A stretch of 58,389 nucleotides of DNA. Origin: Bacteroidales bacterium (lineage in GTDB: Bacteria > Bacteroidota > Bacteroidia > Bacteroidales > UBA4181). How positions within the stretch are numbered: the stretch's first letter is position 1; each line of letters opens with the position of its first letter. The translations under genes were made by a program, and so were the position numbers. The notes under the pieces are model-generated. The model ran no database searches. It saw only the letters and a list, made by a program, of their open reading frames with translations, and was not told where the DNA came from. Where the stretch lies: NCBI GenBank assembly GCA_031551935.1, contig JAVBMZ010000076.1, positions 1-58,389 of the forward strand, read 5' to 3'. Below, piece by piece: positions 14,501-57,969 of this stretch.

Positions 14501-17171
14501 CAACCAAGTCCAACGAACCCGGCACCGAAATAATAACCGGTGCTTCATTATCGGTAATCGTAACATCATACGACTTAGTATCTATGACATCATTACCAAA
14601 ATAAAAAGTCCATGTAACATGAGTTGTTCCCACTTTCAAATCCGCATCCGCCAAAGAAGCTAACCCATTGATGTCGTTTTTATAATTGAAAGACGATAAA
14701 TTTCCACACTTACTGATCTGCGGATCAAATTCACTACCAATCACTTTATAAAAACACTGTCCAGGTGTATTATTTTTACTTTGGTCTCCCGGTATCGTAA
14801 TCTCAGGAACCACAGTTACCAAGAAAGTACATGATTCTGTACCAAGAGAAAAGTCATAATAATAGGTAACAAAAGTTACTCCAATATTAAAACGTTTCCC
14901 GCTTGCATCGGCATCGGTGCTATTAAATAAGGTGGCGCCGGCAAACTCATACCCTCCGTAGCTGATGATTCCTGCGTCGGCAGCAAGGGAAATTCCATTG
15001 ACCACAGCATCACATTCACTACCGACAACCGAGGTAATCACACTGGCCGGACAAGGATAATTTTGAACATTGATCACACACGATTTAGTTGCTACCAGAA
15101 CATTACCGACATAGAAAGACCATATAACATGTGTGGTTCCTGTCGGGAATTCAGCGCCAGTTAATGTTGACAAACCATTGAAATTATTTTCATAACGAAA
15201 TCCTGATGGGATGGCACAAGTAAATGTTGGGTCAAGTCCGTTACCAGGCACTCGGAAAACAGACGTTGCCGGAACATTGATTTGCACCGTCCGGTTTTCG
15301 ATATTTTCAATTTCAGGTATTACATGAATCAAAAAACTACATCCGATACTATGAGAAATATCAGTGCCAAACCAAACCACCGCTGAAGTAGTTCCTGCAT
15401 TGAATCTATTACCATCCACAGGGTTCGTTGTAGCCCCTGTAAATTCATACTGTCCATCTGTCCAGGAAAGTGCAGGATGATTCACTGTGGTATAACATTG
15501 ACCGGCATCTACCGATACAATGATATCATCAGGGCATTCCAATGCTTCAATAGTCACCGTAAACGACAGCCTTTTTACTACCTGATGATCAACCAAACAA
15601 GTCCATTCAATAGTCGTTGTTCCCACTGGCAATGCAGCTCCGCCCAAGGTGGATGCTCCGTTAAAACTATTCCGGTATTCAAGCCCCGACACTGACAAAT
15701 CACAATCCGGATCAAATTCATTACCAGCCACCTGATATGAAATTTCCCCTGCGCCAATCAACCTCGTTTGGTCCTCGGGTATTGCAGGAAGTACTGTTAC
15801 CTGAAAAGTACAGTATCTCCTTCCGCCATCCATAAAGATATACTCCACGGTATGTACCCCTACGCTAAATGTTTCGCCACTCGCATCATAGCCATTTTTA
15901 GGAATACCATCCATCAAATAATTTTCAACCGTTACCCCACCACCGGCTAAAAAAGAAATTCCATTGACCACCGCATCACATTGGCCAGATGGTGCTGAAA
16001 CTACCGTATCAGGCGGGCAATTAGAAGAGGAAACCCTAATCGTAACCTCGAAAGATTTGGCGCCTGCAAAAACTCCATCAGTATAGAAAAACCATTCCAC
16101 TTGGTGGGTACCTACAGAAAGTGTAGTGCCCGCTAAAGTTGTCAGAAGCGATCCGTCTAAGGAAATTTTGTAGGACAATCCAGCTAAACCGCAAGCCTGG
16201 TCGATCAGTGGATCAAATTCGCCACCCTGCGCTGTGTAAAAAGTTTCTCCGGGGGCAATATACCTCGTTTGATTGGTCGGTACGGTGATGTGCGGTAATA
16301 CCGTCACATGGAAAGAACAAGTTTGTGTTGGCGTATATAATGTGAAAAATAAATACGTTACTTCATGCCTCCCCAGGTTAAAAAGCTCATTACTCGCGTC
16401 ATCTCCATCTTTAATGTATCCATCAACTTCGTATGTAATAATAGCCGGAGCATCCTCATCAATTAAAAGAGCAAGCCCATCTATCGTAGTTGTGCATTGT
16501 CCTTCAGGAAGATATACTACCGTATCAGGCGGGCAATAAGAAGATGCTTTGATGGTGACTTCAAAAGATTTAATGTCTGCAAGAACTCCGTTAAAATAGA
16601 AAAAATATTCAATATGATGGGCACCTACAAGAAGTGTAGTGCCCGCTAAAGTCGTCAGGGGTGCCCCATTGAAGATAATTTTGTAAGAAAATCCTGACAA
16701 ATTACAAGTCTGATCAATCAATGGGTCAAATTCTCCACCCATCACTGTATAAAAAGTCTCTCCGGCAGCAATTTGCCTTGTCTGATTGGACAGCGTGGGA
16801 AAGTGCGGCAATACCGTTACATGGGATAAACAGTATCTCATCTCCATATTGACATAACCCACTTCGTGTACCCCTATGCTAAATGTTTCACCACTCGCAT
16901 CGTCGCCATTTATTTGATAAAAATCAATAAAGCAAAGCAAAACGCCGTCGTCCCCTAAATAAGAAATTCCATCGACCACAGCGTCGCATTGACCCAACTG
17001 TGCCAAAACTACCGTATCCCGTGGACAGGGATAATTGAAATTATTTTCTTGTGCTTGAGTTTGTGCCCAAAAACAACAAATCCCGCAACATAACATAAGC
17101 ATGATGCGGTATCTGGAAACAGCACGAAAAACACACTGTGTTAGATACATATTAGCTCGTTTATCGCTCAA
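8574..17171 (-). CDS. Giant SprB-like gliding-motility/T9SS cell-surface adhesin (2865 aa)
   Basis: Signal peptide around RYRIMLMLCCGICCFWAQTQAQ (the true start may be 17150 or 17102). About seven HYR-like bipartite modules (CPxDTVV...GQCxAVV). Five ~92-aa DTxAPVI...DNC...CPSSYxIxRxWxFxDECGNES modules. Ten SprB-type repeats (ISCNGFADGKI, ITCNGAQDGWI, IQCNGDENASI, IICPDGDNGSI and others, about 8880-11355). C-terminal IPNAFSPNGDGVNDRWEI sorting domain. Confidence 0.9.
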   Translation of the reverse strand: MSDKRANMYLTQCVFRAVSRYRIMLMLCCGICCFWAQTQAQENNFNYPCPRDTVVLAQLGQCDAVVDGISYLGDDGVLLCFIDFYQINGDDASGETFSIGVHEVGYVNMEMRYCLSHVTVLPHFPTLSNQTRQIAAGETFYTVMGGEFDPLIDQTCNLSGFSYKIIFNGAPLTTLAGTTLLVGAHHIEYFFYFNGVLADIKSFEVTIKASSYCPPDTVVYLPEGQCTTTIDGLALLIDEDAPAIITYEVDGYIKDGDDASNELFNLGRHEVTYLFFTLYTPTQTCSFHVTVLPHITVPTNQTRYIAPGETFYTAQGGEFDPLIDQACGLAGLSYKISLDGSLLTTLAGTTLSVGTHQVEWFFYTDGVFAGAKSFEVTIRVSSSNCPPDTVVSAPSGQCDAVVNGISFLAGGGVTVENYLMDGIPKNGYDASGETFSVGVHTVEYIFMDGGRRYCTFQVTVLPAIPEDQTRLIGAGEISYQVAGNEFDPDCDLSVSGLEYRNSFNGASTLGGAALPVGTTTIEWTCLVDHQVVKRLSFTVTIEALECPDDIIVSVDAGQCYTTVNHPALSWTDGQYEFTGATTNPVDGNRFNAGTTSAVVWFGTDISHSIGCSFLIHVIPEIENIENRTVQINVPATSVFRVPGNGLDPTFTCAIPSGFRYENNFNGLSTLTGAEFPTGTTHVIWSFYVGNVLVATKSCVINVQNYPCPASVITSVVGSECDAVVNGISLAADAGIISYGGYEFAGATLFNSTDADASGKRFNIGVTFVTYYYDFSLGTESCTFLVTVVPEITIPGDQSKNNTPGQCFYKVIGSEFDPQISKCGNLSSFNYKNDINGLASLADADLKVGTTHVTWTFYFGNDVIDTKSYDVTITDNEAPVIISVPGSLDLVAECYDQDLINTWLSSRPEASDNCTPVNKLKMFVQTAQIFDPDCPKSYVMERKWIFEDAYGNRSNEFVQTITVKDTQPPVIITPIGALDTLLSCDDQIGMAVALALSPEVTDNCTSVADLRVTYSKDSINQGCPSSYTIIRKWKFTDECGNESNEFVQNIVVVDTVAPIITTIAGILDTLLSCDDQAGLFHAMALQPTAVDNCSAADLLQLELVVRDSVPGACPSSYEIIRQWRFKDECGNESALFQQTIIVVDTVAPVIVTLAESLDRLVGCDDQVEMTNALALKPTATDNCSAATNLQLMLVSVDTIYHGCPSSYEIIRQWRFKDECDNESALFQQTITVVDTVAPVIVTSAGSLDKLLGCDDQMRINDALLLAPVATDNCSAAEDLQLILVSRDSIAGACPFSYKIIRQWRFKDECGNESDLYTQTIVVKDTVAPTVLCKNDTVYLDEHGRAVLFAQSINDNSIDNCDDVNHLTYTIRRTGNTDLPTSSLLFACDDVGLVSVTLFVADACGNIDSCHTHVIVKDTIAPKAVCRSTQIEIELGANGTVSITPDMIDGGSWDNCTLPLNALSLDSTEFNCSHVGKLNPVTLTVTDRSGNKDSCVAYVVVKYHGEQIPAPAVSPVLQELCSGGETELVLSNPNYTDVTDWIWNITLPTHISSAQTNGSLSANDTIVQQLFNSSDSAKIVVFTITPKIYHRCVLDDISTTVWVNPQPRLVMFRDTSICDETQTNLPVRTTSTRSPRARVYYEWEIVSSNANVTSDETSSGREYIVNNSSYLRNRLDNLSASAQSVEYALRPSIHFTNRTEVCLSPHTMTYTVIVEPTPFISVVASADTICNATPIIFAIDSLNHPNGRWKFVLERGNIPANDSIPSVVIPHQQNSQFGQTIYNNSVLAHKVDYKFTPQIVTQQNGLCKGADTLITIRVNPTPVMKVSIGQDSICYDAGTSFTMTSNNQYYIGQMKYDLKNVVSNHVENVAVVGMYDFENLCGTEFSQALLKNTSDVVQMVKYSFVPVIQTNSLQCEGQTLDTTIYIAPAVKFDLVAKSYVGGYNISCNGFADGKIYVKDPIGGWQGKGYNYTWNVTGSTDTIVGLSANEYWVIVKDKIHGCGLSDTMILMQPAVLTATATVDPPNCNGPTGSITMNVSGGTANYYFKWEGPDYALEGYDVYKAEGLRSGRYFIDVIDANKCVLPQKEVRVDHYLGDNFQYNLNIPKYGPENQYNITCNGAQDGWITPILTIAASSYTWYYDGAIYKTDTAELGHSFSTADMAISHLDAGNYLLAITDSRGCLYQTRTQILNQPPPIQYAYIIPKYANDYEVKCLDTQTGRINISNVTGAYGGIYEYRWATTVNHSGLVDGSPSQQTLKAGEYSLTIRNSYDANGHCDTTRIFTLTEPSKLTIQATIPEYNSGAYQIACYGATSTIDVNVSGEGAPYTYQWKTDDGSGVNPTVKNQTTLTAGEYKLIVSYFGGLCADTATYILSQPNEIQDNADVSSIQCNGDENASIQLYPTGGAPGGYTYSWQPNAYITNIHAQNQSDLGVGTYVVTIVDVNSCTKTQTYVLEEPTAIQANLTSEDVSCTPGNDGYVAVAPTGGAPGYTYLWNTLNTTERIDGLAIDTYSVTITDANGCTLQAQGIVGTPKPLIVQTVVASSFNGYSIDCFDNNTGKINVDVQQGRPPYTYQWSSGETTAGINNLRAGTYQVLVTDNFNCTGNAQVTLTQPAKMRLQASTTDIICPDGDNGSIQLLVGGGVMPYQYNWSPGGTGTANREHLKAGSYAVAVTDKNHCAIDTVIVLVQPSPMQILFDVNAPFCSEINDGEIRSYISGGTPPYTYLWPNLGSTSQNIADVKSGDYTLVVTDALNCTISKTVTVGYVKDECLRIPNAFSPNGDGVNDRWEIMVGPPNSVTLYHLRDMYPEAVVEVYSANWGILLYRSQKGYPEPWDGKYMGKYLPVNSYFYIIRLDSHTKPITGNVTIIR
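8577..8879 (-). other. T9SS type-B (gliding motility-associated, CHU_C-like) C-terminal sorting domain of the adhesin
   Basis: Last 101 aa: ECLRIPNAFSPNGDGVNDRWEI...YFYIIRLDSHTKPITGNVTIIR. The AFSPNGDGxND motif is the hallmark of this domain. Confidence 0.85.
13190..14568 (-). repeat. Five tandem ~270-285-nt intragenic repeats; the three proximal copies share long identical DNA blocks
   Basis: Blocks such as cattcatcYttgaaacgccattgacgRataatttYatatgaa recur at about 13250, 13520 and 13790 (period 270 nt). More diverged copies lie near 14060 and 14320. Other recurring blocks are gcggaacaattatc and acaataaccggagc. Confidence 0.85.
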
Positions 17172-44219: not shown

Positions 44220-47200
44220 CTATTCCCAGTTGGGTAGTCGATATATTGGACCTGTATCTATTGACGGTACAACCATAATATCCAAAGTTCCTATTTCGCT
44301 GCTGCATCCATTGGCTACCACTGTCACACTGATAGTTCCACTGATAGATCCCGGCATGACACTGATGATACGGCTATCAGGATCTGAGGAGATGATTGTC
44401 CAACCGGCAGGAAGTGCCCAAATATAGGTCGCACCGGGAACATCTGTAGCCATATAAGTTACTTGCTGTCCAACACATACAGATGATGAACCTGTTATAT
44501 TCGGAGTTGCTGGTCTCTGACGTACTTCAATAGGTAATACACTTTCTTTGCCTACCCCACACAACAAGCTGGTTCCTTTGACAGTAATAGCGCCGGATTG
44601 TGCCGTAACTGGCCAATATACTGATATTTTATTCGTATTACTACCGCTTTCGATGCTGGCACCTATAGGAAGCGTCCATTCGTAACCATCAACAGTCATG
44701 GCAGGAATACTGTATTCAATATGTTCCGATGGCACACAGATAATATCAGGGCCACTGATAGCACCTGCATCTTCTATCTTGCTCAATACGGTTACCACTG
44801 ATGGTTCGGAATATGTTTCGTCACAATTACCTGCTTTTATTACTGCACGATACCATACTTCTCCCATATCATTTAAAGTGTTGAGTAAAATATCTTCTGT
44901 GACGAATATGTCTTTCCATGTAAAACCTTTGTCAGTACTACTTTGCCAACGAACAATCTTTCCAAGGTATTCTTTTGCTATCAATTCGAACGTTTTACCC
45001 GGACAGGATGTAAGTGTAGCAGGTGTCACTTTACCTCCGGTAGTCGACGAAATAACATCTACGGAAAGTATTTGAGAATAAGCGTTTGAACACTCACTCA
45101 TGGCTACCTCGGCACGGTATTCCCATTTACCACCTTCGGGAGGCGTCATGGCAATGACATCATTAGTTTCGAGAACATCTGTCCATGTAGTGGTTATGGT
45201 AGTATTACGTTGTTGCCATCTCACCACCTCGCCCTTGTATTCTTCAAGATATAACATGAAACTTTTGCCGGAGCATACATATTCGCTCGCATTGGTGGTA
45301 ACCATGCCGCCTACTGCAACAGGCAGTACGACAATTTCAGCCAATTTGGAATATTCAGGACCGCGATCTCCATTAAAAACTCTGACACGGTATTGCCATC
45401 TCCCCGAGAAACGCGGACTAACTGTGATGATATTTTGGTTTTTCACCGTATTGAAAGTGGTCCAATCGCTAACTACTGTTCCGTCTTCTTCCAGATAACG
45501 GATATCCCAAGCTGCAATACTTGTTTTATAATCCTGAGCCCTCAGTACTACTGTGGCGTCTTGACAGATTGTACTCAACGCAGGAGTAATGGAACCACCT
45601 ACAGGCCTATCACTGGTATCATCTTCCGGTATATTTTTGGATTCAAACGGAATGTCATGGGTAATCGCCCATTTGCCATCGCGATTAAGGGCACGCACAT
45701 ACAGGACATGTTGTCCGAGATCGATACCTGTTAGATCGACATCGAAAGATTTGTCAACATTCCGGTCTGGTGATGGTTCAATCGGCTTGCCTTTACCAAA
45801 GCCAGGATCGGTATCGACAAAATACTCGATGCGGACGATATCTGGGACTCCTTTGATAGCAGGTATTTTGATAAAAGCATTATAGTGTGTGACACTCCAG
45901 CTATTGTCTTCATTAATAGCTCTTATAAATAAGATATGTAATCCGTCGGATAGAGTACTTGTCGGAACAAGAAACTTACGGCTGGCCTTTTCTACTGTCG
46001 GACTGATGGCGATCATATGCCCCATACCAAATCCAGGATCCCTGTCAAAGAAATATTCCAAGGCTTTCACTTTGGATATTTTTGTTTCTTCCATATCCAC
46101 CACCTGTACACTGATGTCCTGAGTGATGCTCCACTTATTGAACTCGTCAAGTGCGCGGACATACAGGGTGTGTGATCCGGAAGTAAGCATATCGGCAGTA
46201 ATTGTGAGACTGGCGGTATAGTCTTTCGCAGATGGGCTAATAGCTACGCTCTTACCTTTCCCAAACCCCGGATCAGTATCAATGAAATATTCTACTGCAA
46301 CAACGTTTGGACGCACCCTGACGGTTGATTTGATGAATGACCGGAATTGCGTAATACTCCAATTTCCCTTGCTATCCTTAGCCCTAATATAAAGTTGATG
46401 TATTCCATCATCGATGGCTGTAAGCGAAATGGCAAAAGTACGAGTGACTTTGTTAGCTACCGTAAATGGAGGTATAGCATGAGCATTACCAAAGCCCGGA
46501 TCATGGTCCATAAACCATTCGATGGCAATGACATCCGATATAGTTGCTATATCAACCTTCATGAAACCAATATTATGAGTAATACTCCATTTTCCGGCAT
46601 CGTCAAGCGCCCTTACGTAGAGTGTATGAAATCCCTCAGATACATTGTCTACATTTACATGAGCACCTGTCAAACTGCCACGAGTCGCTTTTCCAAACCC
46701 AGGATCCTGATCAATAAAGTATTCAATAGCAACTGGGTTAGGTATGATACGTTGTTCTACCTTGATAAATTGATTATATTGCGTCTGACTCCAATGTCCT
46801 AATGTATCCTGAGCACGAACATAGAAAGTATGCAATCCCGGCAAAGTGTTTGCTGGAAGCTGTGCTGTGAATGATTTGATGACCTGTGTTCCCGATATGG
46901 GGATCATGGTTCCTTTCCCAAAACCACGATCTTCATCAAAGAAATATTCAATATAAGCTAAATCGGATGTTAATAATTCACCTACAGAACGTTTGATAAA
47001 AGAGATATCCTGAGTAATACTCCACATACCGGATTTATCCAGTGAACGAATATACAAAGTATGTCCCCCGTCAAGTAGATTCTCGGTTTCCACAACAAAT
47101 GCCGGATTCATGTTATTTCCTGTAAGCGGGATGCTTCGTCCGGATCCGAATCCCGGATCGGTATCCACAAACCATTCCAGACGTGCTAATTCGGTATAAT

Positions 47201-50200
47201 CTCTTGTAGAATGCACTTTTACAAAATTTTGATATTGGGTGATACTCCAAGAGCCCTTATTATCCTTCGCACGGATAAACAAGGTATGCATACCTTCATT
47301 TAATCCAGAAACAGGTATATTGATTTTAGCGGTAACCTGTTTGCCAGGCGTAACCGGAACAACGGTATTCTGGCCAAAACCCTTATCTGTATCGATAAAA
47401 TATTCCAGAGCTTCTACTTCGTTCAATTTAACAACATAGAAAGGCTGATATTGTGTGATACTCCAGGCATCAGTATCATTTTTTGCCCTAACATAGAAGT
47501 TATGCCATCCCTCGTTTAATGCCGATATATCAACAGTGAATGTTTCTATAACAACGCGTTGAGGCGTAGCATAAGTGAATCGCTGTGATGCAGGCACCTT
47601 ACCAAAACCTGGATCATCATTTTCATCATCGCCAATAAACCATTCAATGGCAGCGACATCTGCGATTTGGCGTGTGTCTTCATAACGCACAAAAGTAATG
47701 TCCTGCGTGATACCCCAATGATTCTTATCATCCAAAGCACGGATATACAATGTATGCAAACCATCTGTTAAATTGGCAGCATCAATGAACACAAAAGCAT
47801 GTGTTATTTCTGTTCCTGAAATACCGATTTGCTGACCTGCACCAAAACCGGGATCAGTATCAATGAAATATTCTAATGCGACAAGATTGGCGGGTGTTTG
47901 TTGTGTTGTTTTCAGGAAAGTGAACCGTTGGGAAATACTCCATTTTCCCAGATTATCCCTCACACGCACATACATGGTATGTATACCGTCAGATGTGCCG
48001 GACAAGTCAACAGGCACCGTTTGAGAAATTTGTGATGACGGAGTAACAGCGGTCAGATTTGGTGATTTGCCAAAGCCGGGATCAGTGTCGACAAACCATT
48101 CATAAGCGACAATGTTACGTAATATATTTTCTTCCAGCCTAATAAACGAGAAGTCTTGGGTAATTCCCCAACGTCCGTTTTCGTTCTTTGCACGGATGTA
48201 CAAGGTATGCATTCCTGGCAAAAGTGCAGTGGTATTGATGGGAATATTGACTGTACTTGACGTAACCGTCACAGGATTAGCCAGTCCAAATCCAGGATCG
48301 GAATCAATAAACCATTCCATGGCAACAGTATGGGAGGCATGGTGTTTCGATGCCTTAATGAACTGTTGTATTTGCGTAATACTCCATGAGCCCAAATTAT
48401 CTTTTACTCTCACGTATATGGTATGAATTCCGTCTGCCAATAACGAACTATTGACTTGAACAGTTTTCATTATGCTGGTTCCTACCGTTATAGGGATGTC
48501 GATTCCTGCGCCAAATTCTTTCCATTCATCAATGTAATATTCTGCCTTCACAATATTTTTGACCTTGATTTCCTCAAGTCTTATGAAAGTAACATCTTGT
48601 GTAATACTCCATTCATTGTTTTCATCACGAACGCGCACATATAAGGTATGTAAACCGGGTAATTTATTGGTAAGATCAACATTAAAAGTTTTGTCAATCG
48701 TGGTTGATGGAGTAATGCTTACCTGATTTGCCTTGCCAAAACCCGGATCGGTATCGATAAAATATTCCATACCCAACATTTTGCGATCGCGCATTACTTT
48801 CACTACATTGAAAGTAGCATATTGTGTAATGCTCCATTCATTTTCCATTCCTTTGGCACGAACATAAAGCGTATGTATACCAGGGGCAAATCCGGTTAAA
48901 GGAACATAAGCAGTCACCACAGCATGATCGTCTCCGTATGGAATAGGCATGGCTGTTGCACTTCCAAAGCCTGGATCAGTATCGATGAAGTATTCCAAAG
49001 CGGCTAATCCCGGCTGTTTAGTAATATCTATTACCTCAAAATCAAGCGAATGAGTGATACTCCATTGTCCGTTTCCATTTAATGCGCGAACATACAAGGT
49101 ATGTGTCCCAGAATTCATATGATCGGGTAATGTAACATTGAATAGCCTATTAATTTCTGTTGCTGCGCTAATGGTTACCTTTTTTGCCTTACCAAATCCA
49201 GGATCTATGTCAATGAACCATTCCATACTGACAACCGACGGAATCGGTTTGATTTCTATCCGCATGAATGTAGAACTTTGCGTATGACTCCATTTGCCTG
49301 TATTATCTAACGCCCGTACATACACAGCATGAAGTCCGGACTTCAGGGTATCTACATTGACTGTAATACGTTGCCGTACACTCTGATCGGGTGTTTGAGT
49401 CGCTACATAGTTCGCATTGCCAAATCCGGGATCTTTATCAACAAAATATTCAAAAGCGACGATACTCTTGATTCCTTCAAACCTTGGAATACCTGTATTA
49501 AATATCGAAATATCCTGGGTATGGCTCCATTGTCCAAGACTATTCATCCCTCGCACATACAATGTATGAGCGCCTTCGGGGACTGTATCGAGTTCGATGA
49601 AGAATCTATGATTGACGTCCACACTCCTGTTCGGAATATTGACCATAGTGGCATTGCCAAACCCGGGATCGTCATCCAAGAAATATTCCAAAGCCACAAT
49701 ATCTGGAAATCCGTACAGGCGTGGGTTTTCGACTATTACTAAATTAATATCCTGTGTAATTGTCCAGAATCCCTGATCATCACGAGCACGAATGTACAAT
49801 GTATGAATGCCTGACCAAATGTCATCAGTAGGTATAAACACCTGTTGATAAACATCTTCACCTATGTTGTTGATCGGTATATTTTTACCTTTACCAAATC
49901 CGGGATCGGTATCAATAAAATATTCCAGGTATGAGACTTTTTTACTGACATTCAATGGAATATCAGTGCTAAAAAAACTGATATCTTGTGTAATAGTCCA
50001 TTTACCGTTGGCATCGGCAGCACGCACATACAACGTATGCGGTCCATTATCAATTCCGCTTAAACTAATATCAAAAGATGTACCTGTATTGATTCCCGTT
50101 GGAACAGACAATTGATTTGCTTTTCCAAAACCGGGATCAACATCGATAAACCATTCCATGCGACTGATTTCAGCCAGTTGGTAGTCAGCAGGTATCGCAG

Positions 50201-52850
50201 ATTTGACAAAAGTTCTCCAATGGGTGATACTCCATTTGCCCTTTTCGTCAATAGCACGTACATAAAAGGCATGCAGGCCAGTATTAAGTGATGCAGTACT
50301 GACTGCAAATTTTTTCTGTACATTCTGTCCTTTGGTATCAATGGATATCCGATTAGCTTTGCCTATGCCAGGATCTGAGTCGACAAAATATTCTATTGCC
50401 GTCACATCAGCTATTGAGTAATTTTCTGGTAACTCCGAAACATACAAATCAATCGATTGGGTGATACTCCATTTGCCCAACACGTTTTGCGAACGAATGT
50501 ATAAGGTATGTGATCCGGAAGACACGTCGTCGAGTTGTACCGGAATAAGCTGTTCGCCGGAAGATTGCTGTGACAGGGTTACTATATTTCCAGTCCCAAA
50601 ACCTTTGTCTTTGTCAATAAACCACTCTAAAAGTCGCACATCAGCTTTATCGGGTATCGAGATTTTCAGAAAAGTCTTCATACTGGTCATACTCCATACC
50701 CCATTATTCATACGGGCACGCACATAGAATGTGTGTATTCCCTCTTTGATAGATGCTGATAAAGGCACATTAAATGTCCGACTGACCTTAACGCCAGAAG
50801 TGACATCCACCGCAACAGCCTGTCCAAAACCCGGATCGGTATCGATAAAATATTCTAATGCTACAATTGTTCCTGCTGTTTCTGCGACCATGCTGTAAAA
50901 GGAAACATCTTGTGTAATGCTCCAATCGCCTTTCCGGTTAAGCGACCGTATATACATAGTATGCATCCCCTCGCTATATCCATTATTGATATTGATAACC
51001 AATGTACCATTTGCAGGAATAGGAACTTGCGTGCCTTTTCCAAAACCGGGGTCGCGATCAACGAAATATTCCATTGTAACCGCTTCGCTCAATCCCTCGC
51101 ACACTAAAAAGTGTTGTTGTTGGGTAATGCTCCAATGACCAGAAGCATCCATAGCACGGACATAAAGCGTATACCAACCCTTTTCGGCTCCACCAAGATT
51201 GACGCGGAAAGATTGCGAAATATATTGTCCTTGCACAAATGGGATATTGATAGCTTTTCCAAAGCCAGGATCGGTTTTCCCTGCATCATCCTGTTTTGTG
51301 ATAAAATACTCCAATCTGACAACATCAGGTGTTTCAGGCGCTATCAGACGAAATACCGTCTCATTTTGTGTAACACTCCATTGTCCTTTTGCATTTCGGG
51401 CACGCACATAGAGTGTATGCAAACCTTGTTCTAAATTTTCAAAATCAGCAGTAAATGTCTTGTCTACCTCACTACCCGATATCGCTACTTGATGGGCTTT
51501 ACCAAAACCAGGATCGGTATCTATAAACCATTCAAGCGCAGTCATTGGGTCGCCACCAATGGACATTGCCTTTACAAACATATTGTTCTGTGTGATACTC
51601 CATTTACCGGCTTTATTACGGGCACGCACATAAAGTCTATGCAAACCAGCGCTCAATTGCGAAGTATTGACAGTAAAAGATTGTGTTGACCGTTGTCCCG
51701 GTGCATTCAAAGGTACAGGAATAGCGTTTCCAAAACCCGGATCAGTATCGACAAAATATTCTACATAATTAACATCAAATGCCGTCTGGGCATCGATTTT
51801 AATGAACTCGAGCGTCTGTACAATTCCCCATCGACCCATACTGTTTTTCGAACGTATATACAGCGTATGTACCCCACTCCCTAATGTATCAACATTAATT
51901 TGAAAAGAGGAAGTAATATTCTGGGCTGGAACGTTAATATTGACTGGTGCAGCCTTACCAAATCCGGGATCGGTGTCAATAAAATATTCTAATTGTTCGA
52001 TGTTTGAACCCGTTGAGATATCTGCCTTAACAAAAGTATTACTTTGTGTAATACTCCACTTGCCATCGGAATTGCGCGCACGCACATAGAGTCGATGTAC
52101 GCCTGAACCTATTTGTGAGATATCAACTGTGAATGGTTGTACCACATGGTCGCCCGGCGAAGTAACGACTATATTATTTGCTTTTCCAAAGCCCGGATCC
52201 ACATCAATAAAATATTCCAGGCCTGTGATGTCTGGCAACACTTCAACAAAAAACTGTTGGTAAGATCTTGTTTGGGTAATGCTCCATCGTCCATCCCTAT
52301 CCATTGAACGGATATAAAGCGTATGAGTGCCTGCAGCAGATGGGTCTACACTAATATTGACCAATTGATCAATATTTGCCCCTTGTGTTATCTCAATTTT
52401 ACTCGCCTGACCTATGCCAGGATCGGTATCGATAAAATATTCGAGTCGGACAACACTGGGTACTACATGTATTTTGGTACGGATAAAGGAACGCGCCTGA
52501 GTGATACTCCATACAGGAGTCAGATCGGCTCCATAAGACATGGCCCGTACATACACATGATGAATCCCTTCGGATAAATGAGCTGTAGAAACATTATTAA
52601 CGGTAATAGATATGTCACCTCCCGGGGTAAAGCCTGTTATAATAGGTGTTGCTTTACCTACACCCGGGTCGTTATCAATAAAGTATTCTAAACGCCGAAT
52701 TTGATTTTGGGCAGAAAGTGGTAAAGAAATGAATAAAGAACAATAAATAATAAAGCATGAGAGGCGATATATCATTCTGCCAAGGTTTTTTTGCCTTGAT
52801 ATGGGCTTTTCGATGTGCCATTTGTGATATATATGCCGAATTAAATTCAT
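44220..52850 (-). CDS. Giant secreted repeat protein (2876 aa): 31 tandem ~76-aa units of unassigned family, then 3 Cys/Trp-containing ~90-aa domains, then 2 PKD-like domains
   Basis: Uninterrupted 8.6-kb ORF. The probable start is 52775 (MIYRLSCFIIYCSLFISLPLSAQNQ signal peptide). For repeat details see the repeat feature at 45603..52700. The C-terminus (...DIMVVPSIDTGPIYRLPNWE) lacks type-A and type-B T9SS sorting motifs. Confidence 0.9.
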   Translation of the reverse strand: MNLIRHIYHKWHIEKPISRQKNLGRMIYRLSCFIIYCSLFISLPLSAQNQIRRLEYFIDNDPGVGKATPIITGFTPGGDISITVNNVSTAHLSEGIHHVYVRAMSYGADLTPVWSITQARSFIRTKIHVVPSVVRLEYFIDTDPGIGQASKIEITQGANIDQLVNISVDPSAAGTHTLYIRSMDRDGRWSITQTRSYQQFFVEVLPDITGLEYFIDVDPGFGKANNIVVTSPGDHVVQPFTVDISQIGSGVHRLYVRARNSDGKWSITQSNTFVKADISTGSNIEQLEYFIDTDPGFGKAAPVNINVPAQNITSSFQINVDTLGSGVHTLYIRSKNSMGRWGIVQTLEFIKIDAQTAFDVNYVEYFVDTDPGFGNAIPVPLNAPGQRSTQSFTVNTSQLSAGLHRLYVRARNKAGKWSITQNNMFVKAMSIGGDPMTALEWFIDTDPGFGKAHQVAISGSEVDKTFTADFENLEQGLHTLYVRARNAKGQWSVTQNETVFRLIAPETPDVVRLEYFITKQDDAGKTDPGFGKAINIPFVQGQYISQSFRVNLGGAEKGWYTLYVRAMDASGHWSITQQQHFLVCEGLSEAVTMEYFVDRDPGFGKGTQVPIPANGTLVININNGYSEGMHTMYIRSLNRKGDWSITQDVSFYSMVAETAGTIVALEYFIDTDPGFGQAVAVDVTSGVKVSRTFNVPLSASIKEGIHTFYVRARMNNGVWSMTSMKTFLKISIPDKADVRLLEWFIDKDKGFGTGNIVTLSQQSSGEQLIPVQLDDVSSGSHTLYIRSQNVLGKWSITQSIDLYVSELPENYSIADVTAIEYFVDSDPGIGKANRISIDTKGQNVQKKFAVSTASLNTGLHAFYVRAIDEKGKWSITHWRTFVKSAIPADYQLAEISRMEWFIDVDPGFGKANQLSVPTGINTGTSFDISLSGIDNGPHTLYVRAADANGKWTITQDISFFSTDIPLNVSKKVSYLEYFIDTDPGFGKGKNIPINNIGEDVYQQVFIPTDDIWSGIHTLYIRARDDQGFWTITQDINLVIVENPRLYGFPDIVALEYFLDDDPGFGNATMVNIPNRSVDVNHRFFIELDTVPEGAHTLYVRGMNSLGQWSHTQDISIFNTGIPRFEGIKSIVAFEYFVDKDPGFGNANYVATQTPDQSVRQRITVNVDTLKSGLHAVYVRALDNTGKWSHTQSSTFMRIEIKPIPSVVSMEWFIDIDPGFGKAKKVTISAATEINRLFNVTLPDHMNSGTHTLYVRALNGNGQWSITHSLDFEVIDITKQPGLAALEYFIDTDPGFGSATAMPIPYGDDHAVVTAYVPLTGFAPGIHTLYVRAKGMENEWSITQYATFNVVKVMRDRKMLGMEYFIDTDPGFGKANQVSITPSTTIDKTFNVDLTNKLPGLHTLYVRVRDENNEWSITQDVTFIRLEEIKVKNIVKAEYYIDEWKEFGAGIDIPITVGTSIMKTVQVNSSLLADGIHTIYVRVKDNLGSWSITQIQQFIKASKHHASHTVAMEWFIDSDPGFGLANPVTVTSSTVNIPINTTALLPGMHTLYIRAKNENGRWGITQDFSFIRLEENILRNIVAYEWFVDTDPGFGKSPNLTAVTPSSQISQTVPVDLSGTSDGIHTMYVRVRDNLGKWSISQRFTFLKTTQQTPANLVALEYFIDTDPGFGAGQQIGISGTEITHAFVFIDAANLTDGLHTLYIRALDDKNHWGITQDITFVRYEDTRQIADVAAIEWFIGDDENDDPGFGKVPASQRFTYATPQRVVIETFTVDISALNEGWHNFYVRAKNDTDAWSITQYQPFYVVKLNEVEALEYFIDTDKGFGQNTVVPVTPGKQVTAKINIPVSGLNEGMHTLFIRAKDNKGSWSITQYQNFVKVHSTRDYTELARLEWFVDTDPGFGSGRSIPLTGNNMNPAFVVETENLLDGGHTLYIRSLDKSGMWSITQDISFIKRSVGELLTSDLAYIEYFFDEDRGFGKGTMIPISGTQVIKSFTAQLPANTLPGLHTFYVRAQDTLGHWSQTQYNQFIKVEQRIIPNPVAIEYFIDQDPGFGKATRGSLTGAHVNVDNVSEGFHTLYVRALDDAGKWSITHNIGFMKVDIATISDVIAIEWFMDHDPGFGNAHAIPPFTVANKVTRTFAISLTAIDDGIHQLYIRAKDSKGNWSITQFRSFIKSTVRVRPNVVAVEYFIDTDPGFGKGKSVAISPSAKDYTASLTITADMLTSGSHTLYVRALDEFNKWSITQDISVQVVDMEETKISKVKALEYFFDRDPGFGMGHMIAISPTVEKASRKFLVPTSTLSDGLHILFIRAINEDNSWSVTHYNAFIKIPAIKGVPDIVRIEYFVDTDPGFGKGKPIEPSPDRNVDKSFDVDLTGIDLGQHVLYVRALNRDGKWAITHDIPFESKNIPEDDTSDRPVGGSITPALSTICQDATVVLRAQDYKTSIAAWDIRYLEEDGTVVSDWTTFNTVKNQNIITVSPRFSGRWQYRVRVFNGDRGPEYSKLAEIVVLPVAVGGMVTTNASEYVCSGKSFMLYLEEYKGEVVRWQQRNTTITTTWTDVLETNDVIAMTPPEGGKWEYRAEVAMSECSNAYSQILSVDVISSTTGGKVTPATLTSCPGKTFELIAKEYLGKIVRWQSSTDKGFTWKDIFVTEDILLNTLNDMGEVWYRAVIKAGNCDETYSEPSVVTVLSKIEDAGAISGPDIICVPSEHIEYSIPAMTVDGYEWTLPIGASIESGSNTNKISVYWPVTAQSGAITVKGTSLLCGVGKESVLPIEVRQRPATPNITGSSSVCVGQQVTYMATDVPGATYIWALPAGWTIISSDPDSRIISVMPGSISGTISVTVVANGCSSEIGTLDIMVVPSIDTGPIYRLPNWE
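45603..52700 (-). repeat. 31 head-to-tail coding repeats (68-82 aa, ~230 nt)
   Basis: Every unit starts [LMIVFYA]E[YW][FY][IVLFM]DxDPGFGxA and ends GxHTLY[VI]RAxDxxGxWS[IV]TQxxxF. The DNA block ccaaaNccNggatcNgtatcNatNaaNtaYtc recurs at ~230-nt spacing with differences at synonymous sites. Confidence 0.9.
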
Positions 52851-52870: not shown

Positions 52871-52907
52871 CCTAACAGGTTTGTCAAACCTGTTAGGTTT
52901 ATTTTTT
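52871..52907. repeat. CCTRACAGG-family hairpin (12-bp perfect stem) plus T-run on the + strand, in the leader of the giant gene
   Basis: cctaacaggttt (52871-52882), gtc, aaacctgttagg (52886-52897), then tttatttttt. It lies 21 nt upstream of ATG 52850 and 96 nt upstream of the probable start at 52775. Confidence 0.7.
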
Positions 52908-53353: not shown

Positions 53354-53381
53354 CCTGACAGGTCTTTGAAGACCTGTCAGG
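53354..53381 (-). terminator. CCTRACAGG-family hairpin, 11-bp perfect stem, 8 nt after the stop of 53389..54993
   Basis: cctgacaggtc (53354-53364), tttgaa, gacctgtcagg (53371-53381). There is only a weak U-tract on the minus strand (ttaaaata). Confidence 0.5.
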
Positions 53382-53388
53382 AAATGTA

Positions 53389-54993
53389 TCAATGTGATTT
53401 TACCTTTACGCGTACTTCAAATCCAGTTGATGGAACTTCATTACCACCCGGAATAGTGATTTCCCATACGGCCGGAATGGTGTACAAACCTGAGAAGATA
53501 TAAGGAGCCAAACCACCATACATACCACGTTGCTTGGCCGTTTCAGCGGCAGCAGGGGGTGAACCGGGGTTCAAAGCAAACGAATTATCTACATACCAAG
53601 TTCCTGGAGAAACAAACCAGTTGGTGTTGGTGCTTTCATACACATCGCCGGTGCCATTGGCAGAAGCCATTCCACCATAAAGCCTTGCCTGATTTTGCCA
53701 AAGAGTACTGTTCAAAATAATATTGTCTTTGGTATCGTTTGCTACAGTTGCCCGTGTAGCTGTAGGGCCAAATTGTGTCGGCAAACCATAACAAGCTTCT
53801 GCATGTGTCACTGTGCCATGAGTCCATCCCGGATAAAACAGATTGTTGGATAAACGGGCTGCTTTAGCCGCTATATTAAAAGCATAATAAAAAGTATTGT
53901 TTTGAAGGGTTGGATTCACTACCGGCCATGTAAAACGATTATAGTATGTTTCTCTATCTTCACTCCATGTATGCGCAGAAAGATACTCTGTAGCCGGCCA
54001 TGGTGCCGCCGATTTACCCTTTCCCCTCAAATCAATTACCAAGTATGAAGTGGCTTGAACAGGACCATTGAGAGATACAGCGCTGGTGGTTGTATTGTTG
54101 TTCCCATGAGTTCCATTATAAGCATATCCTATACAAACACCATCATTCCGGAAAAAACTATTGGAAATAATCAGATTAATGACAGGCTTATCGCTTACAC
54201 GACAGGCAATCATACCTGGGTTGAAAAAACACTTAGTAACCGTAATATTTTTCAACGTATCGGTATTATATAATTCTAAGAAATATAATTTGTTGTGGCT
54301 TATGATCACATTGTTGGCATTCACCATTACTTTATATTTAGTACCTTGATTCCAACATCTTGCCTGAGCAGTTGCCAGATTACTGACGCAACCGTTAATG
54401 TTTCCGAAATTTCCGGCACTGTATCCCGATGTTGTAGCTTCATCATAAAAAGGCCATACACCGGAATATACATATTTATTAAAAATATCTGTCGCCACAA
54501 AACGCCCCACAGGTCCATAAGCTGAATTACCTGCAAAAATGTTCACAGATGTCGCATTGCTATTAGCACCATCATCGATCATGTTGGATGGCATTTGCTC
54601 TAATCCGGCAATAACTGTTCCGGCTGCTTCCTTGGCAATATAAAGACTATAAAATCTGGCAGGGTATTTATTGTGCTGTGTTTCGCTATTTTTATCTAGT
54701 AAATAACCAGGGCCAATAATCACTAGCCGTTTCTTTACTGTATCCATCGATACTCCAGATACGGAATTATCCTTACCATAAGGTCCTTTTGAAGATCCCT
54801 CGATGTGAAGCGTGTCACCTGCATTTACTTTGCTTGACCTCAAGGCCAAAGTCAGTGCAGATGTCGAACCGACATCCCAAAAATCACAACTTTTATTGGG
54901 GTTATTGTTTACGCGCCAAATCTTTGCTGAGGCGTCCTGAGTAACCGCTAACCCGGCCACCACTATGATGAGAAATAAACAAATCTTTTTCAT
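53389..54993 (-). CDS. Secreted right-handed parallel beta-helix protein, paralogue 1 (534 aa)
   Basis: Signal peptide ...TQDASA|KIWRVNNN. Asn-ladder-type repeats ISNSFFRND, LQNNTFYYAF, LSNNLFY. C-terminal block QRGMYGGLAPYIFSGLYTIPAVWEI...GFEVRVKVKSH shared with the next two genes. Confidence 0.75.
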   Translation of the reverse strand: MKKICLFLIIVVAGLAVTQDASAKIWRVNNNPNKSCDFWDVGSTSALTLALRSSKVNAGDTLHIEGSSKGPYGKDNSVSGVSMDTVKKRLVIIGPGYLLDKNSETQHNKYPARFYSLYIAKEAAGTVIAGLEQMPSNMIDDGANSNATSVNIFAGNSAYGPVGRFVATDIFNKYVYSGVWPFYDEATTSGYSAGNFGNINGCVSNLATAQARCWNQGTKYKVMVNANNVIISHNKLYFLELYNTDTLKNITVTKCFFNPGMIACRVSDKPVINLIISNSFFRNDGVCIGYAYNGTHGNNNTTTSAVSLNGPVQATSYLVIDLRGKGKSAAPWPATEYLSAHTWSEDRETYYNRFTWPVVNPTLQNNTFYYAFNIAAKAARLSNNLFYPGWTHGTVTHAEACYGLPTQFGPTATRATVANDTKDNIILNSTLWQNQARLYGGMASANGTGDVYESTNTNWFVSPGTWYVDNSFALNPGSPPAAAETAKQRGMYGGLAPYIFSGLYTIPAVWEITIPGGNEVPSTGFEVRVKVKSH

Positions 54994-55049
54994 TGTATAT
55001 TGATTATGGTATATTATTCTATGTGTACTATATTATTGTTCTTGATATT

Positions 55050-56186
55050 TTAATGCGCCATTACTTTTACAGTCACTTCAAAGCCATCGGCAGAGACTTC
55101 TGTCGGCATTACAATTTCATATACGGCTGGTATAGAAGTAAGCCCCGATTTACCATAAGGCGCTAATCCACCATACATACCGTATTCTTTAATGGCAGCA
55201 GCTTCGGTTGGTATATTGCGTAAAGGCGAAGGACTTCCTGTTTTAGAAGTAAAATAAGCATCATACAACTCATTGTTGCCCGAACCTGTGAACCAAGCTA
55301 ATGGATCGGTTGCTGCCGATACCGTATTGGCTTCACCGTTTTCAACAACTCCCGTCCATGCATAATTGGTAATGTTTTGTGTACATGGTTTAGAGGGAGC
55401 ATCCACTGTAATAGCAGATGCAACGTTACTGGCTGCACGGTAAAATGCATTGCGGGTAATATCTGCCCCTGTGTTCATAGTCGTAATGGCAAAATTTTTG
55501 TAAAAAGTATTGTTGCTGATACGCGATTTTACATTTACGTTCAAATCAATAACTGTATTGCCAGTTCCGTCATTTCTGAAAAAATTGTTCATAATGTTCA
55601 GGTTGGAAACAATAGAAGCGCCGGTAGTACGTATGACGCCTGGTCCAAACCATGATTTTTTAATATCAATATCACTCAAGGATTTGTCATTGTTGATCTC
55701 TACAACAAAAAGCCGGCTATTGATCACTTTGACATAGCTGGCATTGATGATCACGCGAGGACCTGTCCACAATGCTGCAGAAGCTGATGTCATGGCAACA
55801 GTGAAACTCGAAGTACTGGTGTTTGCCTGAGCATGCACATCATGTTCCACACCTGCTATTACCACACTATCAGCCGTAATCGTAATGGTACCCAGTTTTG
55901 CCGGTTGCTTGATGTATTGTGTTTCCAAGTTATTCGACAAATAATATCCCGGACCGAAAATATGCAGGGCTTTTTTATTGATAGTTACACTATTAAGATA
56001 TGGTATGGAAGACCCCTCTATATGTATGGTATCGCCTGCCCCCACCCGATTGTCATCGATAACGGCTTGCGTGAAATCTGTAAAATCGCAAGCTACTCCT
56101 GCGTTATTGTTTACCCGCCATATTTTAGCGGAGGCATTATATCCTCCCACAAGCAGGCTTACAAAAATGATCAGATACTTCTTCAT
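55050..56186 (-). CDS. Secreted right-handed parallel beta-helix protein, paralogue 2 (378 aa)
   Basis: Signal ...GYNASA|KIWRVNNN, GDTIHIEGS, IFGPGYYL, IMNNFFRNDGTGN, ISNNTFYKNF, ITRNAFY. C-terminal EYGMYGGLAPYGKSGLTSIPAVYEI...GFEVTVKVMAH. Confidence 0.75.
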   Translation of the reverse strand: MKKYLIIFVSLLVGGYNASAKIWRVNNNAGVACDFTDFTQAVIDDNRVGAGDTIHIEGSSIPYLNSVTINKKALHIFGPGYYLSNNLETQYIKQPAKLGTITITADSVVIAGVEHDVHAQANTSTSSFTVAMTSASAALWTGPRVIINASYVKVINSRLFVVEINNDKSLSDIDIKKSWFGPGVIRTTGASIVSNLNIMNNFFRNDGTGNTVIDLNVNVKSRISNNTFYKNFAITTMNTGADITRNAFYRAASNVASAITVDAPSKPCTQNITNYAWTGVVENGEANTVSAATDPLAWFTGSGNNELYDAYFTSKTGSPSPLRNIPTEAAAIKEYGMYGGLAPYGKSGLTSIPAVYEIVMPTEVSADGFEVTVKVMAH

Positions 56187-56230
56187 ATGATTGTTGATTT
56201 TTAAATTTTACATTTTTATGAATTTGTGCC

Positions 56231-56263
56231 AGACCTAACAGGAAAACAATACCTGTCAGGTCT
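56231..56263. repeat. CCTRACAGG-family hairpin plus T-run on the + strand, between paralogues 3 and 2
   Basis: agacctaacagg (56231-56242), 9-nt loop, cctgtcaggtct (56252-56263), then ttttatttattt. The single A/C mismatch on the + strand becomes a G-U pair on the minus-strand RNA. Confidence 0.65.
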
Positions 56264-56281
56264 TTTTATTTATTTATCGTT

Positions 56282-57394
56282 TTAATGAACACTCGCTTGA
56301 ATGACCATATCAAATTGATTACCTACTTCACCATCCATCAGGATGCTATATACTGAAGGTATTGCATACATTCCTGAACGAATATACGGTGTGCGTCCTC
56401 CATACATGCCGCGTTGTTTTTCGTCGCTGGTGAGATCACTGTTATCTCTCAATGGACAAGTGGCGCCCATGTGCGCCGAACGATAATATACATCTATTTT
56501 TTCGTCGTTACCGCTACAGGAAAACCAGTTCTCAAGCGTCGCAAACTGCACATCATTTACACCTCCATAGGTCGTAATTTGTGCATCAAATGCGATATTG
56601 GAAACATTACTATTATATGTATTGGTAGAATAATAATTCAATGCCGGTGTTACTGTGGAGTAAAAAGCATTGCTTTCAATATTTGTATTGTACACAGTTA
56701 CTTTAAAATTTTTATAAAAGGTATTGTTCCCAAGTCGCCAGTCAGCGCAAGCCGTCACTGATGTATTAGCAATGACATCATAAGGAGTCTGATCATTGCG
56801 GAAAAAACAATTGCTGATGCTTAAACTTGTAATAGGATTTGCTGTGTTTTTGGCCACATACACCACACCTGGGTTAAAAAAACATTTCTGAATGGAAATA
56901 TTGATCAACGACTTGTTGTTATTGTTCAGTTCAACAAAAAATAACCGGCAATTAATAATTTTAATCGTATCGGTCTGAATAACAATCTTGTTTCCCGCAT
57001 AAGCAGAGGTGGAAACAATAGAAAAACCGCTGGTCGAACCCATATTGTATTGCTCAATCCCTGCAATCACAGAACCTTGACTACCAGTATCAAAAATAAT
57101 GTTACCGTTCATCTTAGCCGGTTCCTTGTTGTATTGCGTTTTTTCCGTAGATGTCAAAAAATATCCCGGACCAATAATCACCACCTTACGATCTATGGTC
57201 ACATTACCAGTGTATGGACTCACCGAACCTTCAATATGAATGGTATCAACCGCCGTTTTGGAAGCCGCGCCTACCGCATCGTTCAGTGAGGTATAAACAT
57301 TTAATAAACCTGTATTATTGTTCACCCTGAGAATTTTAGCCTGTAAAGAAGGCGTCAAAATCATCAGAAATATCCATAAATATCCTTGTTTCAT
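56282..57394 (-). CDS. Secreted right-handed parallel beta-helix protein, paralogue 3 (370 aa)
   Basis: Signal ...TPSLQA|KILRVNNN, DTIHIEGS, IIGPGYFL, ISNCFFRNDQ, LGNNTFYKNF, IESNAFY. C-terminal QRGMYGGRTPYIRSGMYAIPSVYSI...FDMVIQASVH. Confidence 0.75.
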   Translation of the reverse strand: MKQGYLWIFLMILTPSLQAKILRVNNNTGLLNVYTSLNDAVGAASKTAVDTIHIEGSVSPYTGNVTIDRKVVIIGPGYFLTSTEKTQYNKEPAKMNGNIIFDTGSQGSVIAGIEQYNMGSTSGFSIVSTSAYAGNKIVIQTDTIKIINCRLFFVELNNNNKSLINISIQKCFFNPGVVYVAKNTANPITSLSISNCFFRNDQTPYDVIANTSVTACADWRLGNNTFYKNFKVTVYNTNIESNAFYSTVTPALNYYSTNTYNSNVSNIAFDAQITTYGGVNDVQFATLENWFSCSGNDEKIDVYYRSAHMGATCPLRDNSDLTSDEKQRGMYGGRTPYIRSGMYAIPSVYSILMDGEVGNQFDMVIQASVH

Positions 57395-57420
57395 TTCCGT
57401 ATTTATTTACCTAATTGATG

Positions 57421-57461
57421 CCTTCTTGTACGTATAAACGACAAGAAGGTTTCGCTTTTTA
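57421..57461. other. 9-bp hairpin plus T-run on the + strand, 27 nt upstream of the paralogue-3 start codon
   Basis: ccttcttgt (57421-57429), 11-nt loop, acaagaagg (57441-57449), then tttcgcttttta. Confidence 0.5.
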
Positions 57462-57646
57462 TGGAAAAATATTATTTCTTTGTCAAATGCAGTACTTATT
57501 CCAGGAAAATCGTTGGATCATTTATCAACAAAAACTACCAACAAGACTTATAGTCTAAAATACACCATTTCATAAAAAACAGTAACTTAAATATCCGCAT
57601 TTACACATGACAATGTAATGTTTATATTAATTGTATAGTCAGAAAC

Positions 57647-57696
57647 ATTAAATACTATGAAATATATATTAAATACTATAATATTTATATTAAAAC
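57647..57696. repeat. Three AT-rich sites phased at 21 bp (ATTAAATACTAT x2, ATTAAAAC)
   Basis: ATTAAATACTAT at 57647 and 57668, and ATTAAAAC at 57689. The sites lie ~250-300 nt upstream of the paralogue-3 ATG. Confidence 0.6.
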
Positions 57697-57969
57697 ACCT
57701 GAAATGACTTCACATCAATCTCAATCATCCATTGCAGATTGAATCAGAAGTAAAAATTATATCGAGGACAAAAGTGATTTAGAGGCAAATGTACCGCCCC
57801 CCTAATAGAATTACCCTGAAATTTAGAATATTATTGATATACAAAACTTAATACTATAGATGGTGTAGGTATTGCCGCAAAAAGTCATCTATCAATTCTC
57901 ATTATGCTGGGTATATGCTAAAAATAGTTGTGAAATCCGTTTTTTAAGAAAACAAAAATCACAATGGTA

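Follow-up and report, generated by a model that had tools for sequence, protein, structure and literature searches.

The 58,389-nt stretch of DNA analysed here, contig JAVBMZ010000076.1 of a Bacteroidales bacterium (assembly GCA_031551935.1; hereafter the window), encodes three tandem paralogous secreted beta-helix proteins, A, B and C, upstream of a gene for a secreted repeat protein of 2,876 amino acids (aa). The pairing of such helix genes with a downstream repeat gene is near-obligatory throughout the Bacteroidota, and in three lineages helix and repeats are fused into one chain, in which the C-terminal block of the helix is joined to the first repeat. With moderate confidence, we propose that A, B and C are non-catalytic binding heads of the adjacent fibre. 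An earlier sequence-only reading of this DNA had singled out the three genes and left their function open; it missed the decisive context, the pairing with the downstream repeat protein.

Conserved pairing of helix and repeat genes

The pairing was followed in 40 regions fetched from the phylum scan and in 4 loci with named relatives, and counts are given over 45 loci (L numbers below). Open reading frames (ORFs) were scanned with two hidden Markov models (HMMs), one for the helix and one for the repeat, the latter built from the 2,876-aa protein of the window. In 44 of the 45 loci, spread across the Bacteroidota, one to three helix genes were followed directly by a same-strand gene for a protein with 2 to 36 EYFIDTDPGFG repeats. 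These repeat partners measured 364 to 4,917 aa. The gap between helix and repeat gene had a median of about 20 nt in 46 pairs, with many gaps of only 3 to 4 nt and many overlaps. The repeats of the partners start no more than a few residues away from the point where the signal peptide is cleaved, and Pfam models match the repeat only below the domain threshold.

Helix and repeat also went together genome by genome. Among 401 genomes, 39 contained both, 3 the helix only and 8 the repeat only; the samples include related genomes, and these counts are descriptive, not statistical. The three helix-only genomes comprised one weak partial match, one fragment at a contig end and one fusion. Two of the eight repeat-only genomes were checked, and both had a helix gene directly upstream that had been missed by the loose first pass.

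A type IX secretion system (T9SS) sorting domain, either Por_Secre_tail or CHU_C, was present at the end of 7 of 9 scanned partners from other lineages, and partners with the type-B sorting domain were followed by a PorP/SprF gene. The only locus without a repeat partner (L054, from a metagenome-assembled genome [MAG] of the Chloroherpetonaceae) encodes a 655-aa protein that combines the helix with Laminin_G_3 and Por_Secre_tail. The helix that lacks a repeat partner thus carries its own tag, which we count in favour of a head carried on a stalk. A fusion of helix, LamG and C-terminal sorting domain (CTD) was rejected as a recurrent type; L054 is a singleton.

In some repeat partners and fusions the T9SS domain is replaced by a dockerin-like, Cys-flanked D.N.D..VN..DL end (L060, 13899-14993; L074, 4200-18953; L085, 2736-4910) that weakly matched the GC-type dockerin model NF041540. 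To judge by these sequences, more than one type of anchor seems to be possible on the stalk. Upstream of the modules, LuxR-type regulators were encoded in 13 loci and 7TMR-DISM histidine kinases in 8; loci of distant lineages with LuxR/GerE proteins (with or without a receiver domain) or 7TMR-DISM proteins were L005, L048, L057, L059, L060, L062-L066 and L076-L079. This gene content suggests that expression of the helix-repeat module may be controlled by a signal. In the window, no LuxR/GerE or 7TMR-DISM gene was seen adjoining A-B-C.

Fusions and the proposed head-stalk junction

The class scan of Bacteroidia genomes returned helix matches within long ORFs, and fusions were found in about 6 of the 73 helix-bearing genomes. 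Single-chain helix-repeat fusions were verified on fetched DNA in three lineages: f103 (L083, L084 and L087), f13 (L085) and f97 (L086). The complete fusions of f103/g226 are 1,558 to 1,559 aa long (L087 is cut by the contig end) and are composed of a signal peptide, the helix (7-340), six repeats and further domains, with a T9SS type-A domain in L083 (TIGR04183, 45.6 bits versus a cut-off of 23); a fourth f103/g226 genome gave an ORF of 1,562 aa in the class scan. L085 (f13/g314) encodes a 724-aa protein with the helix, four repeats and a dockerin-like end and, in addition, a 572-aa protein with the helix and one repeat. The fusion in L086 (f97/g220; 1,233 aa) consists of helix, repeat and TIGR04183 (30.2 bits versus a cut-off of 23).

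At the junction in L083 the chain reads ...IPEITSINVQANAVEGGNLNIAFTAQGK-MAHG-VVSGEYFFDSDPG, and the helix end there reads ...NLNIAFTAQGK. The linker between the C-terminal block of the helix and the first strand of repeat 1 has only 4 to 6 residues in f103 and is longer, more diverged and less clear in L085 and L086. In the split form, the two halves of this junction are thus the last residue of the helix and the mature N-terminus of the partner (Q-NITRVEYF..). With its C-terminus anchored at the cell by the sorting domain, the partner bears the helix at the distal tip. In f103, and ahead of one of the two fusions in L085, a free helix gene is retained, so free and fused heads coexist; this hints at an association of helix with helix.

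For the C-terminal block of A, B and C, the sequence-only reading had considered a folding cap, an anchoring or sorting element and an interaction module. The interaction module gains real support from the fusions, whereas a described sorting domain was not recovered: neither Por_Secre_tail nor CHU_C matched A, B or C at E ≤ 1 in Pfam. T9SS CTDs of Prevotella intermedia can be as short as 43 to 55 aa (PMC11969387). The tail of A, B and C after the IPxV motif amounts to only about 28 aa, and alignment of the last 50 residues with the type-A CTDs of the partners gave an hhalign probability of 0.5%, by which a short or cryptic T9SS CTD was rejected. The tail as a worn copy of the fibre repeat was likewise rejected (hhalign probability, 2.2%).

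Properties and fold of A, B and C

Alignment confirmed that A, B and C (Table 1) are three tandem paralogues with a signal peptide, a conserved block at either end, turns that carry the Asn ladder and His as the last residue, as read before. B and C are 44% and 40% identical to A, respectively, and the three-way alignment has 93 invariant columns. The intergenic spacing is 95 nt between A and B and 56 nt between B and C, and C is the helix gene closest to the fibre gene. A query of the genome with B recovered A at E = 5e-62 and C in three pieces; the likeness of the three is therefore not a matter of chance. The same search found no further helix copies in the 3.07-Mb assembly.

The signal peptides comprise 19 to 23 aa and are followed by ..A/KI[WL]RVNNN; they end ..LQA/K, ..ASA/K and ..ASA/K, with no lipobox Cys at +1 in A, B or C. 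All three proteins contain the N-terminal motifs [GV]DT[IL]HIEGS and I[IF]GPGY, the ladder-turn motifs I[SM]N.FFRND, NNTFY and N[AL]FY, and the C-terminal motif [QE][RY]GMYGG[LR][AT]PY..SG[LM]..IP[AS]V[WY][ES]I...F[ED][VM].[VI]...H. Every motif quoted previously was thus present, with one-residue corrections to VDTIHIEGS in A and GDTLHIEGS in C. The mature proteins have calculated masses of 38.6 kDa (A), 38.4 kDa (B) and 55.7 kDa (C) and isoelectric points of 6.0, 6.0 and 8.7. The surplus of C, put at about 150 residues in the sequence-only reading, amounts to 156 to 164 residues, most of them within two insertions (residues 139-215 and 288-346).

B was modelled by AlphaFold2 from a 97-sequence alignment as a right-handed parallel beta-helix, with a mean predicted local distance difference test score (pLDDT) of 88.7 and a predicted template modelling (TM) score of 0.89. 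After the helix follows a C-terminal hairpin of two strands (residues 353-359 and 372-377). The model of C has the same core as B at a pLDDT of >85, and both insertions are <50. Foldseek searches of PDB and BFVD yielded beta-helix folds only, generic enzymes and tail proteins, at E ≥ 2.5e-3 and with TM-scores of 0.2 to 0.4 (PDB matches, E ≥ 7e-3). The weak neighbours were beta-helix carbohydrate-active enzymes (CAZymes) or tailspikes (PL6, CE8, RbmB [9ozl], GH136 and DFA-IIIase), and the best viral matches were tail proteins. Since the neighbours are generic, no function could be transferred from them. The fold itself had been read correctly from the sequence, and on the strength of the models we are confident in predicting that A, B and C are secreted right-handed beta-helix proteins.

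Table 1. Features of the helix-fibre region (window positions)
Feature	Position	Strand	Description
Paralogue A	56282..57394	minus	370 aa; beta-helix between a signal peptide and a C-terminal junction block; ends SVH
Paralogue B	55050..56186	minus	378 aa; beta-helix between a signal peptide and a C-terminal junction block; ends MAH
Paralogue C	53389..54993	minus	534 aa; architecture of A and B plus two large low-confidence insertions; ends KSH
C-terminal block of C	53392..53535	minus	QRGMYGG..PY..SG..IPAVWEI...FEVRVKVKSH; helix C-cap motif plus two-strand hairpin
C-terminal blocks of A and B	A 56285-56419; B 55053-55187	minus	Equivalent to the block of C
Insertion 1 of C, residues 139-215	54349..54579	minus	pLDDT <50; length commonly varies here in family members
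Insertion 2 of C, residues ~288-346	53956..54132	minus	Mostly pLDDT <50
AT-rich non-coding region 5' of A	57395..57969	minus	575 nt; presumed promoter/regulatory region of the A-B-C unit
Perfect hairpin (CCTGACAGGTC..GACCTGTCAGG)	53354..53381	minus	8 nt past the stop codon of C; no T-run
Partner fibre	44220..52850	minus	2,876 aa, secreted; ~31 EYFIDTDPGFG immunoglobulin (Ig)-like repeats right after the signal peptide, then PKD_6 domains

The hairpin behind C is possibly a transcript end or a processing site ahead of the 538-nt gap that separates C from the fibre gene. Together with a near-identical perfect hairpin at 52871-52897, built like it on CCTRACAGGT..ACCTGTYAGG, it brackets this gap; only the hairpin at 52871-52897 has a T-run, on the opposite (plus) strand. 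A scan for sigma-70 promoters and terminators gave counts no higher than the shuffle level and was uninformative.

A large family with three old orthologue groups

A profile search that covered 1.84 billion cluster representatives (clusters at 50% identity) put the family at a minimum of 2,396 clusters (E ≤ 1e-30) and, with the looser threshold of E ≤ 1e-10, retrieved 5,117. All of the top 150 measured between 313 and 404 aa, and the profile stops at the last residue of the protein; the family has a uniform single-domain architecture. Of 401 Bacteroidota genomes sampled, 42 contained it, with 29 of 180 genera represented; in the class scan it was present in 73 of the 401 genomes of Bacteroidia. 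Matches came from Marinimicrobia, KSB1 and Chloroherpetonaceae MAGs as well. The conserved ends read A/KIWRVNNN.G..ADF...Q.A......GDTIH.EGS..Y....K.L.IIGPGY at the N-terminus and GSPA..AG....D.GMYGG..PY.LSG.P.IP.IY....P......V.V.V... at the C-terminus. The two blocks, previously regarded as private to the three genes, are thus common to a family of thousands of clusters. By their appearance, 'GDTI..G.Y' and 'GSPA.DAG...D.GAY' may be the family forms of the usual beta-helix first coil and C-cap. A, B and C all end in His, but this residue is restricted to their Bacteroidales clade, and other clades end ..KSNN, ..TRNNN, ..KAKGN, ..ESKN, ..SNN, ..KGN or ..SKN; the terminal His was therefore rejected as a family-wide conserved signal.

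Existing libraries hardly touch the family. With A, B and C as queries, the best match in Pfam and NCBIfam had E = 0.057, the few weaker ones being unrelated families far under the cut-off, and no curated beta-helix family, including PF13229 Beta_helix, matched at E ≤ 1. PF13229 was weakly matched by 5 of 97 relatives in a Pfam scan (best E = 4.6e-6), and one fusion protein had a weak match to the NosD family (27 bits versus a cut-off of 300). Profile searches of PDB sequences gave nothing significant (A1, no match; A2, best E = 0.1). In the literature searched, we found no description of the helix family or of the helix-repeat pairing.

A maximum-likelihood tree of 160 sequences resolved three orthologue groups, one each for the A-, B- and C-type proteins, and placed all of them inside one 43-member clade from Bacteroidales MAGs and metagenomes. 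The order A-B-C-then-fibre is kept in L001 and L003, whose proteins are about 50% identical to those of the window; A-B-C is also found on L002, a short contig that ends ahead of any fibre gene. The tree and the gene order indicate that A, B and C go back to one old triplication whose order was kept and whose copies were all retained. Tandem duplications of the helix gene arose independently in other lineages.

Two helix genes have a single in-frame stop (G311:C12:257569-258642, TAA; G568:C94:16302-17384, TGA); both genomes hold other helix copies, and the interrupted genes may be decaying duplicates. Giant SprB/cadherin-like proteins are encoded upstream of the A-B-C triplet in L001 (1-8428) and L003 (414-6253), and the same stretches contain a protein with an FGE-sulfatase domain in L001 and a PQQ beta-propeller in L003. 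Genes for surface adhesins appear to cluster in this lineage. The fibre ORF of L003 (10565-17611, 2,348 aa) stops within the repeat region, 68 nt from the contig end; this may stem from the assembly or from truncation of the allele.

Export and anchoring in the window genome

The genome encodes a T9SS, with SprA (2575 bits), PorV (515 bits) and at least six ORFs with Por_Secre_tail above the cut-off. The last 169 aa of the fibre (44220-44729, minus strand) matched no NCBIfam family at E ≤ 0.1. Only 40 nt separate the end of the fibre gene from a convergent epimerase gene, too little for an exon-like piece to have been missed. A second giant protein of 2,865 aa (8574-17171, minus strand) is a canonical SprB-like T9SS adhesin with SprB repeats, HYR, PKD_5 and a type-B CHU_C domain, and its PorP/SprF gene lies directly downstream (7610-8593, minus strand). 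Since the SprB-like protein carries CHU_C and the repeat fibre does not, a tagged and an untagged giant share one window.

Binding scaffold or enzyme

Conservation was determined in 149 non-identical family members, in B numbering and at a threshold of ≥80%. Between residues 113 and 308, only Asn residues of the ladder (N200, N225/226, N245/246, N271 and N287, conserved in 82-99% of the sequences) reached the threshold; no Asp, Glu, Lys, Arg or His did so in this region. Conservation elsewhere was confined to the cap at the N-terminus with the first coils (D52, S59, Y63, K72, G78, G80 and G112) and to the C-terminal block. The sites that vary in length, including the insertion sites of C, are loops, and this variation is most extreme in C. 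Since no acid or base is conserved family-wide and the variable sites are loops, a binding scaffold is favoured. The earlier impression that a catalytic signature is lacking therefore stands; there was also no match to a CAZy-type family.

Weighing of the explanations

If A, B and C are heads, the helix proteins would form the N-terminal, cell-distal part of a split head-and-stalk surface fibre, with the 2,876-aa repeat protein as the stalk. In the split form, the C-terminal block, with its C-cap motif and hairpin and here ending in His, would dock non-covalently on the mature N-terminal repeat of the fibre, and the body of the helix would serve as a binding module, with a glycan or a surface as the likeliest target. 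Heads without an export tag of their own would reach the surface riding on the stalk, and the three paralogues might be alternative heads or together one hetero-oligomeric head. Several points weigh against this proposal. A physical association of head and stalk would follow from the fusions, but these are rare and may themselves be derived exceptions. Nor does the proposal account for three heads at a single N-terminus. In the whole fibre protein, Pfam detected no T9SS sorting domain, so that export by piggy-back has no recognisable vehicle here, and the gap of 538 nt with its hairpin is the widest of the 46 pairs, which points to a looser coupling in the window. Moreover, clade-specific enzymes would be compatible with the absence of family-wide catalytic residues, and the weak structural neighbours are all glycan-active enzymes.

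An alternative view is that the helices are catalytic heads: glycan depolymerases or esterases mounted on the stalk, comparable with phage tailspikes or with RbmB, a matrix lyase, that would cut or remodel a polysaccharide, for instance the neighbouring exopolysaccharide (EPS) or a dietary or host glycan. Besides the CAZymes and tailspikes among the neighbours, it could draw on clade-specific charged motifs such as FFRND and on the EPS locus that lies beyond the fibre gene in the window. However, relatives do not share the EPS neighbourhood, and a link to that locus was rejected. Neither Pfam nor NCBIfam gave anything at E ≤ 0.05 for A, B or C, the profile searches of PDB were without significant match, the Foldseek matches are too weak for a function to be transferred, and the body of the helix lacks a conserved charged residue or His in 149 members. 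We thus regard catalytic heads as unlikely. Still less probable is a role as periplasmic helpers, i.e., chaperones, assembly factors or export factors for the repeat cargo that stay outside the finished surface structure. With a type-I signal peptide and neither a T9SS sorting domain nor a lipobox nor a beta-barrel, the periplasm is the location predicted by default, and the tight, often translational coupling to the cargo gene would suit a helper. But the helix-repeat-CTD fusions are themselves T9SS cargo, whose helix leaves the cell at the far end of the fibre, and the sole helix without a repeat partner has its own sorting domain; moreover, T9SS cargo is not known to need dedicated periplasmic chaperones. 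That the helices are independent secreted proteins, which share no more than regulation or inheritance with the fibre gene and are coupled to it neither physically nor functionally, would fit the wide, hairpin-bearing gap in the window. It is strongly disfavoured, and we consider it very improbable, by the adjacency kept over phylum-level divergence in 44 of 45 loci, the co-occurrence of the two families and their fusion in three lineages.

Within the proposal of non-catalytic heads, one special form goes further: the untagged helices would fold in the periplasm, clamp their C-terminal block onto the first repeat and cross the outer membrane together with the fibre. In the termite-gut-like Bacteroidales clade of the window, this would give three diverged heads on a 31-repeat stalk that has lost a recognisable sorting domain. 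We consider this form possible but rather doubtful. Because its stalk lacks a recognisable sorting domain, it implies a second signal for export or anchoring.

If binding heads are indeed what the helices are, the surface fibres of many Bacteroidota would consist of two polypeptides, the functional head being a product of its own that lacks an export tag, and the heads would offer a handle on what such fibres bind. The piggy-back route, if true, has not been described for the T9SS and would raise the question for T9SS biology of how an untagged folded protein leaves the cell. The family comprises thousands of clusters at 50% identity and occurs in about 10 to 18% of the sampled Bacteroidota genomes, and our searches found no domain model, solved structure or paper for it; for annotation, separate new family models would be warranted for the N-terminal block, the C-terminal block and the repeat. 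With the fusions, what was a "hypothetical beta-helix" becomes a claim that can be put to the test.

Comparison with known systems

The proposed fibre resembles the T9SS fibrillar adhesins SprB and RemA of Flavobacterium johnsoniae, which have a long stalk of Ig-like repeats, a C-terminal T9SS anchor and, at the distal N-terminus, a functional module; the type-B partners are followed by PorP/SprF. Unlike in SprB and RemA, the head is here usually a separate, untagged polypeptide encoded upstream, an arrangement that we did not find in the literature searched, and the stalk of the window has no detectable sorting domain. With beta-helix enzymes that act on glycans (PL6 alginate/chondroitin lyases, CE8 pectin methylesterases, RbmB of Vibrio cholerae, which is encoded among biofilm-matrix genes, and GH136), the helix proteins share the fold, the Asn-ladder turns and the 'GDTI..G..Y' first coil at the N-terminus, but they match none of these families in sequence and have no conserved catalytic or metal-binding residues. 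PF13229, CASH and NosD-type domains have neither the terminal blocks of this family nor its repeat partner. Phage tailspikes and tail fibres also carry a beta-helix module at the end of a fibre, and a short adaptor region at one terminus attaches it. In tailspikes, which are homotrimers, attachment is through the N-terminus, whereas in the helix family it is the C-terminus that faces the stalk, and the system is cellular, not viral.

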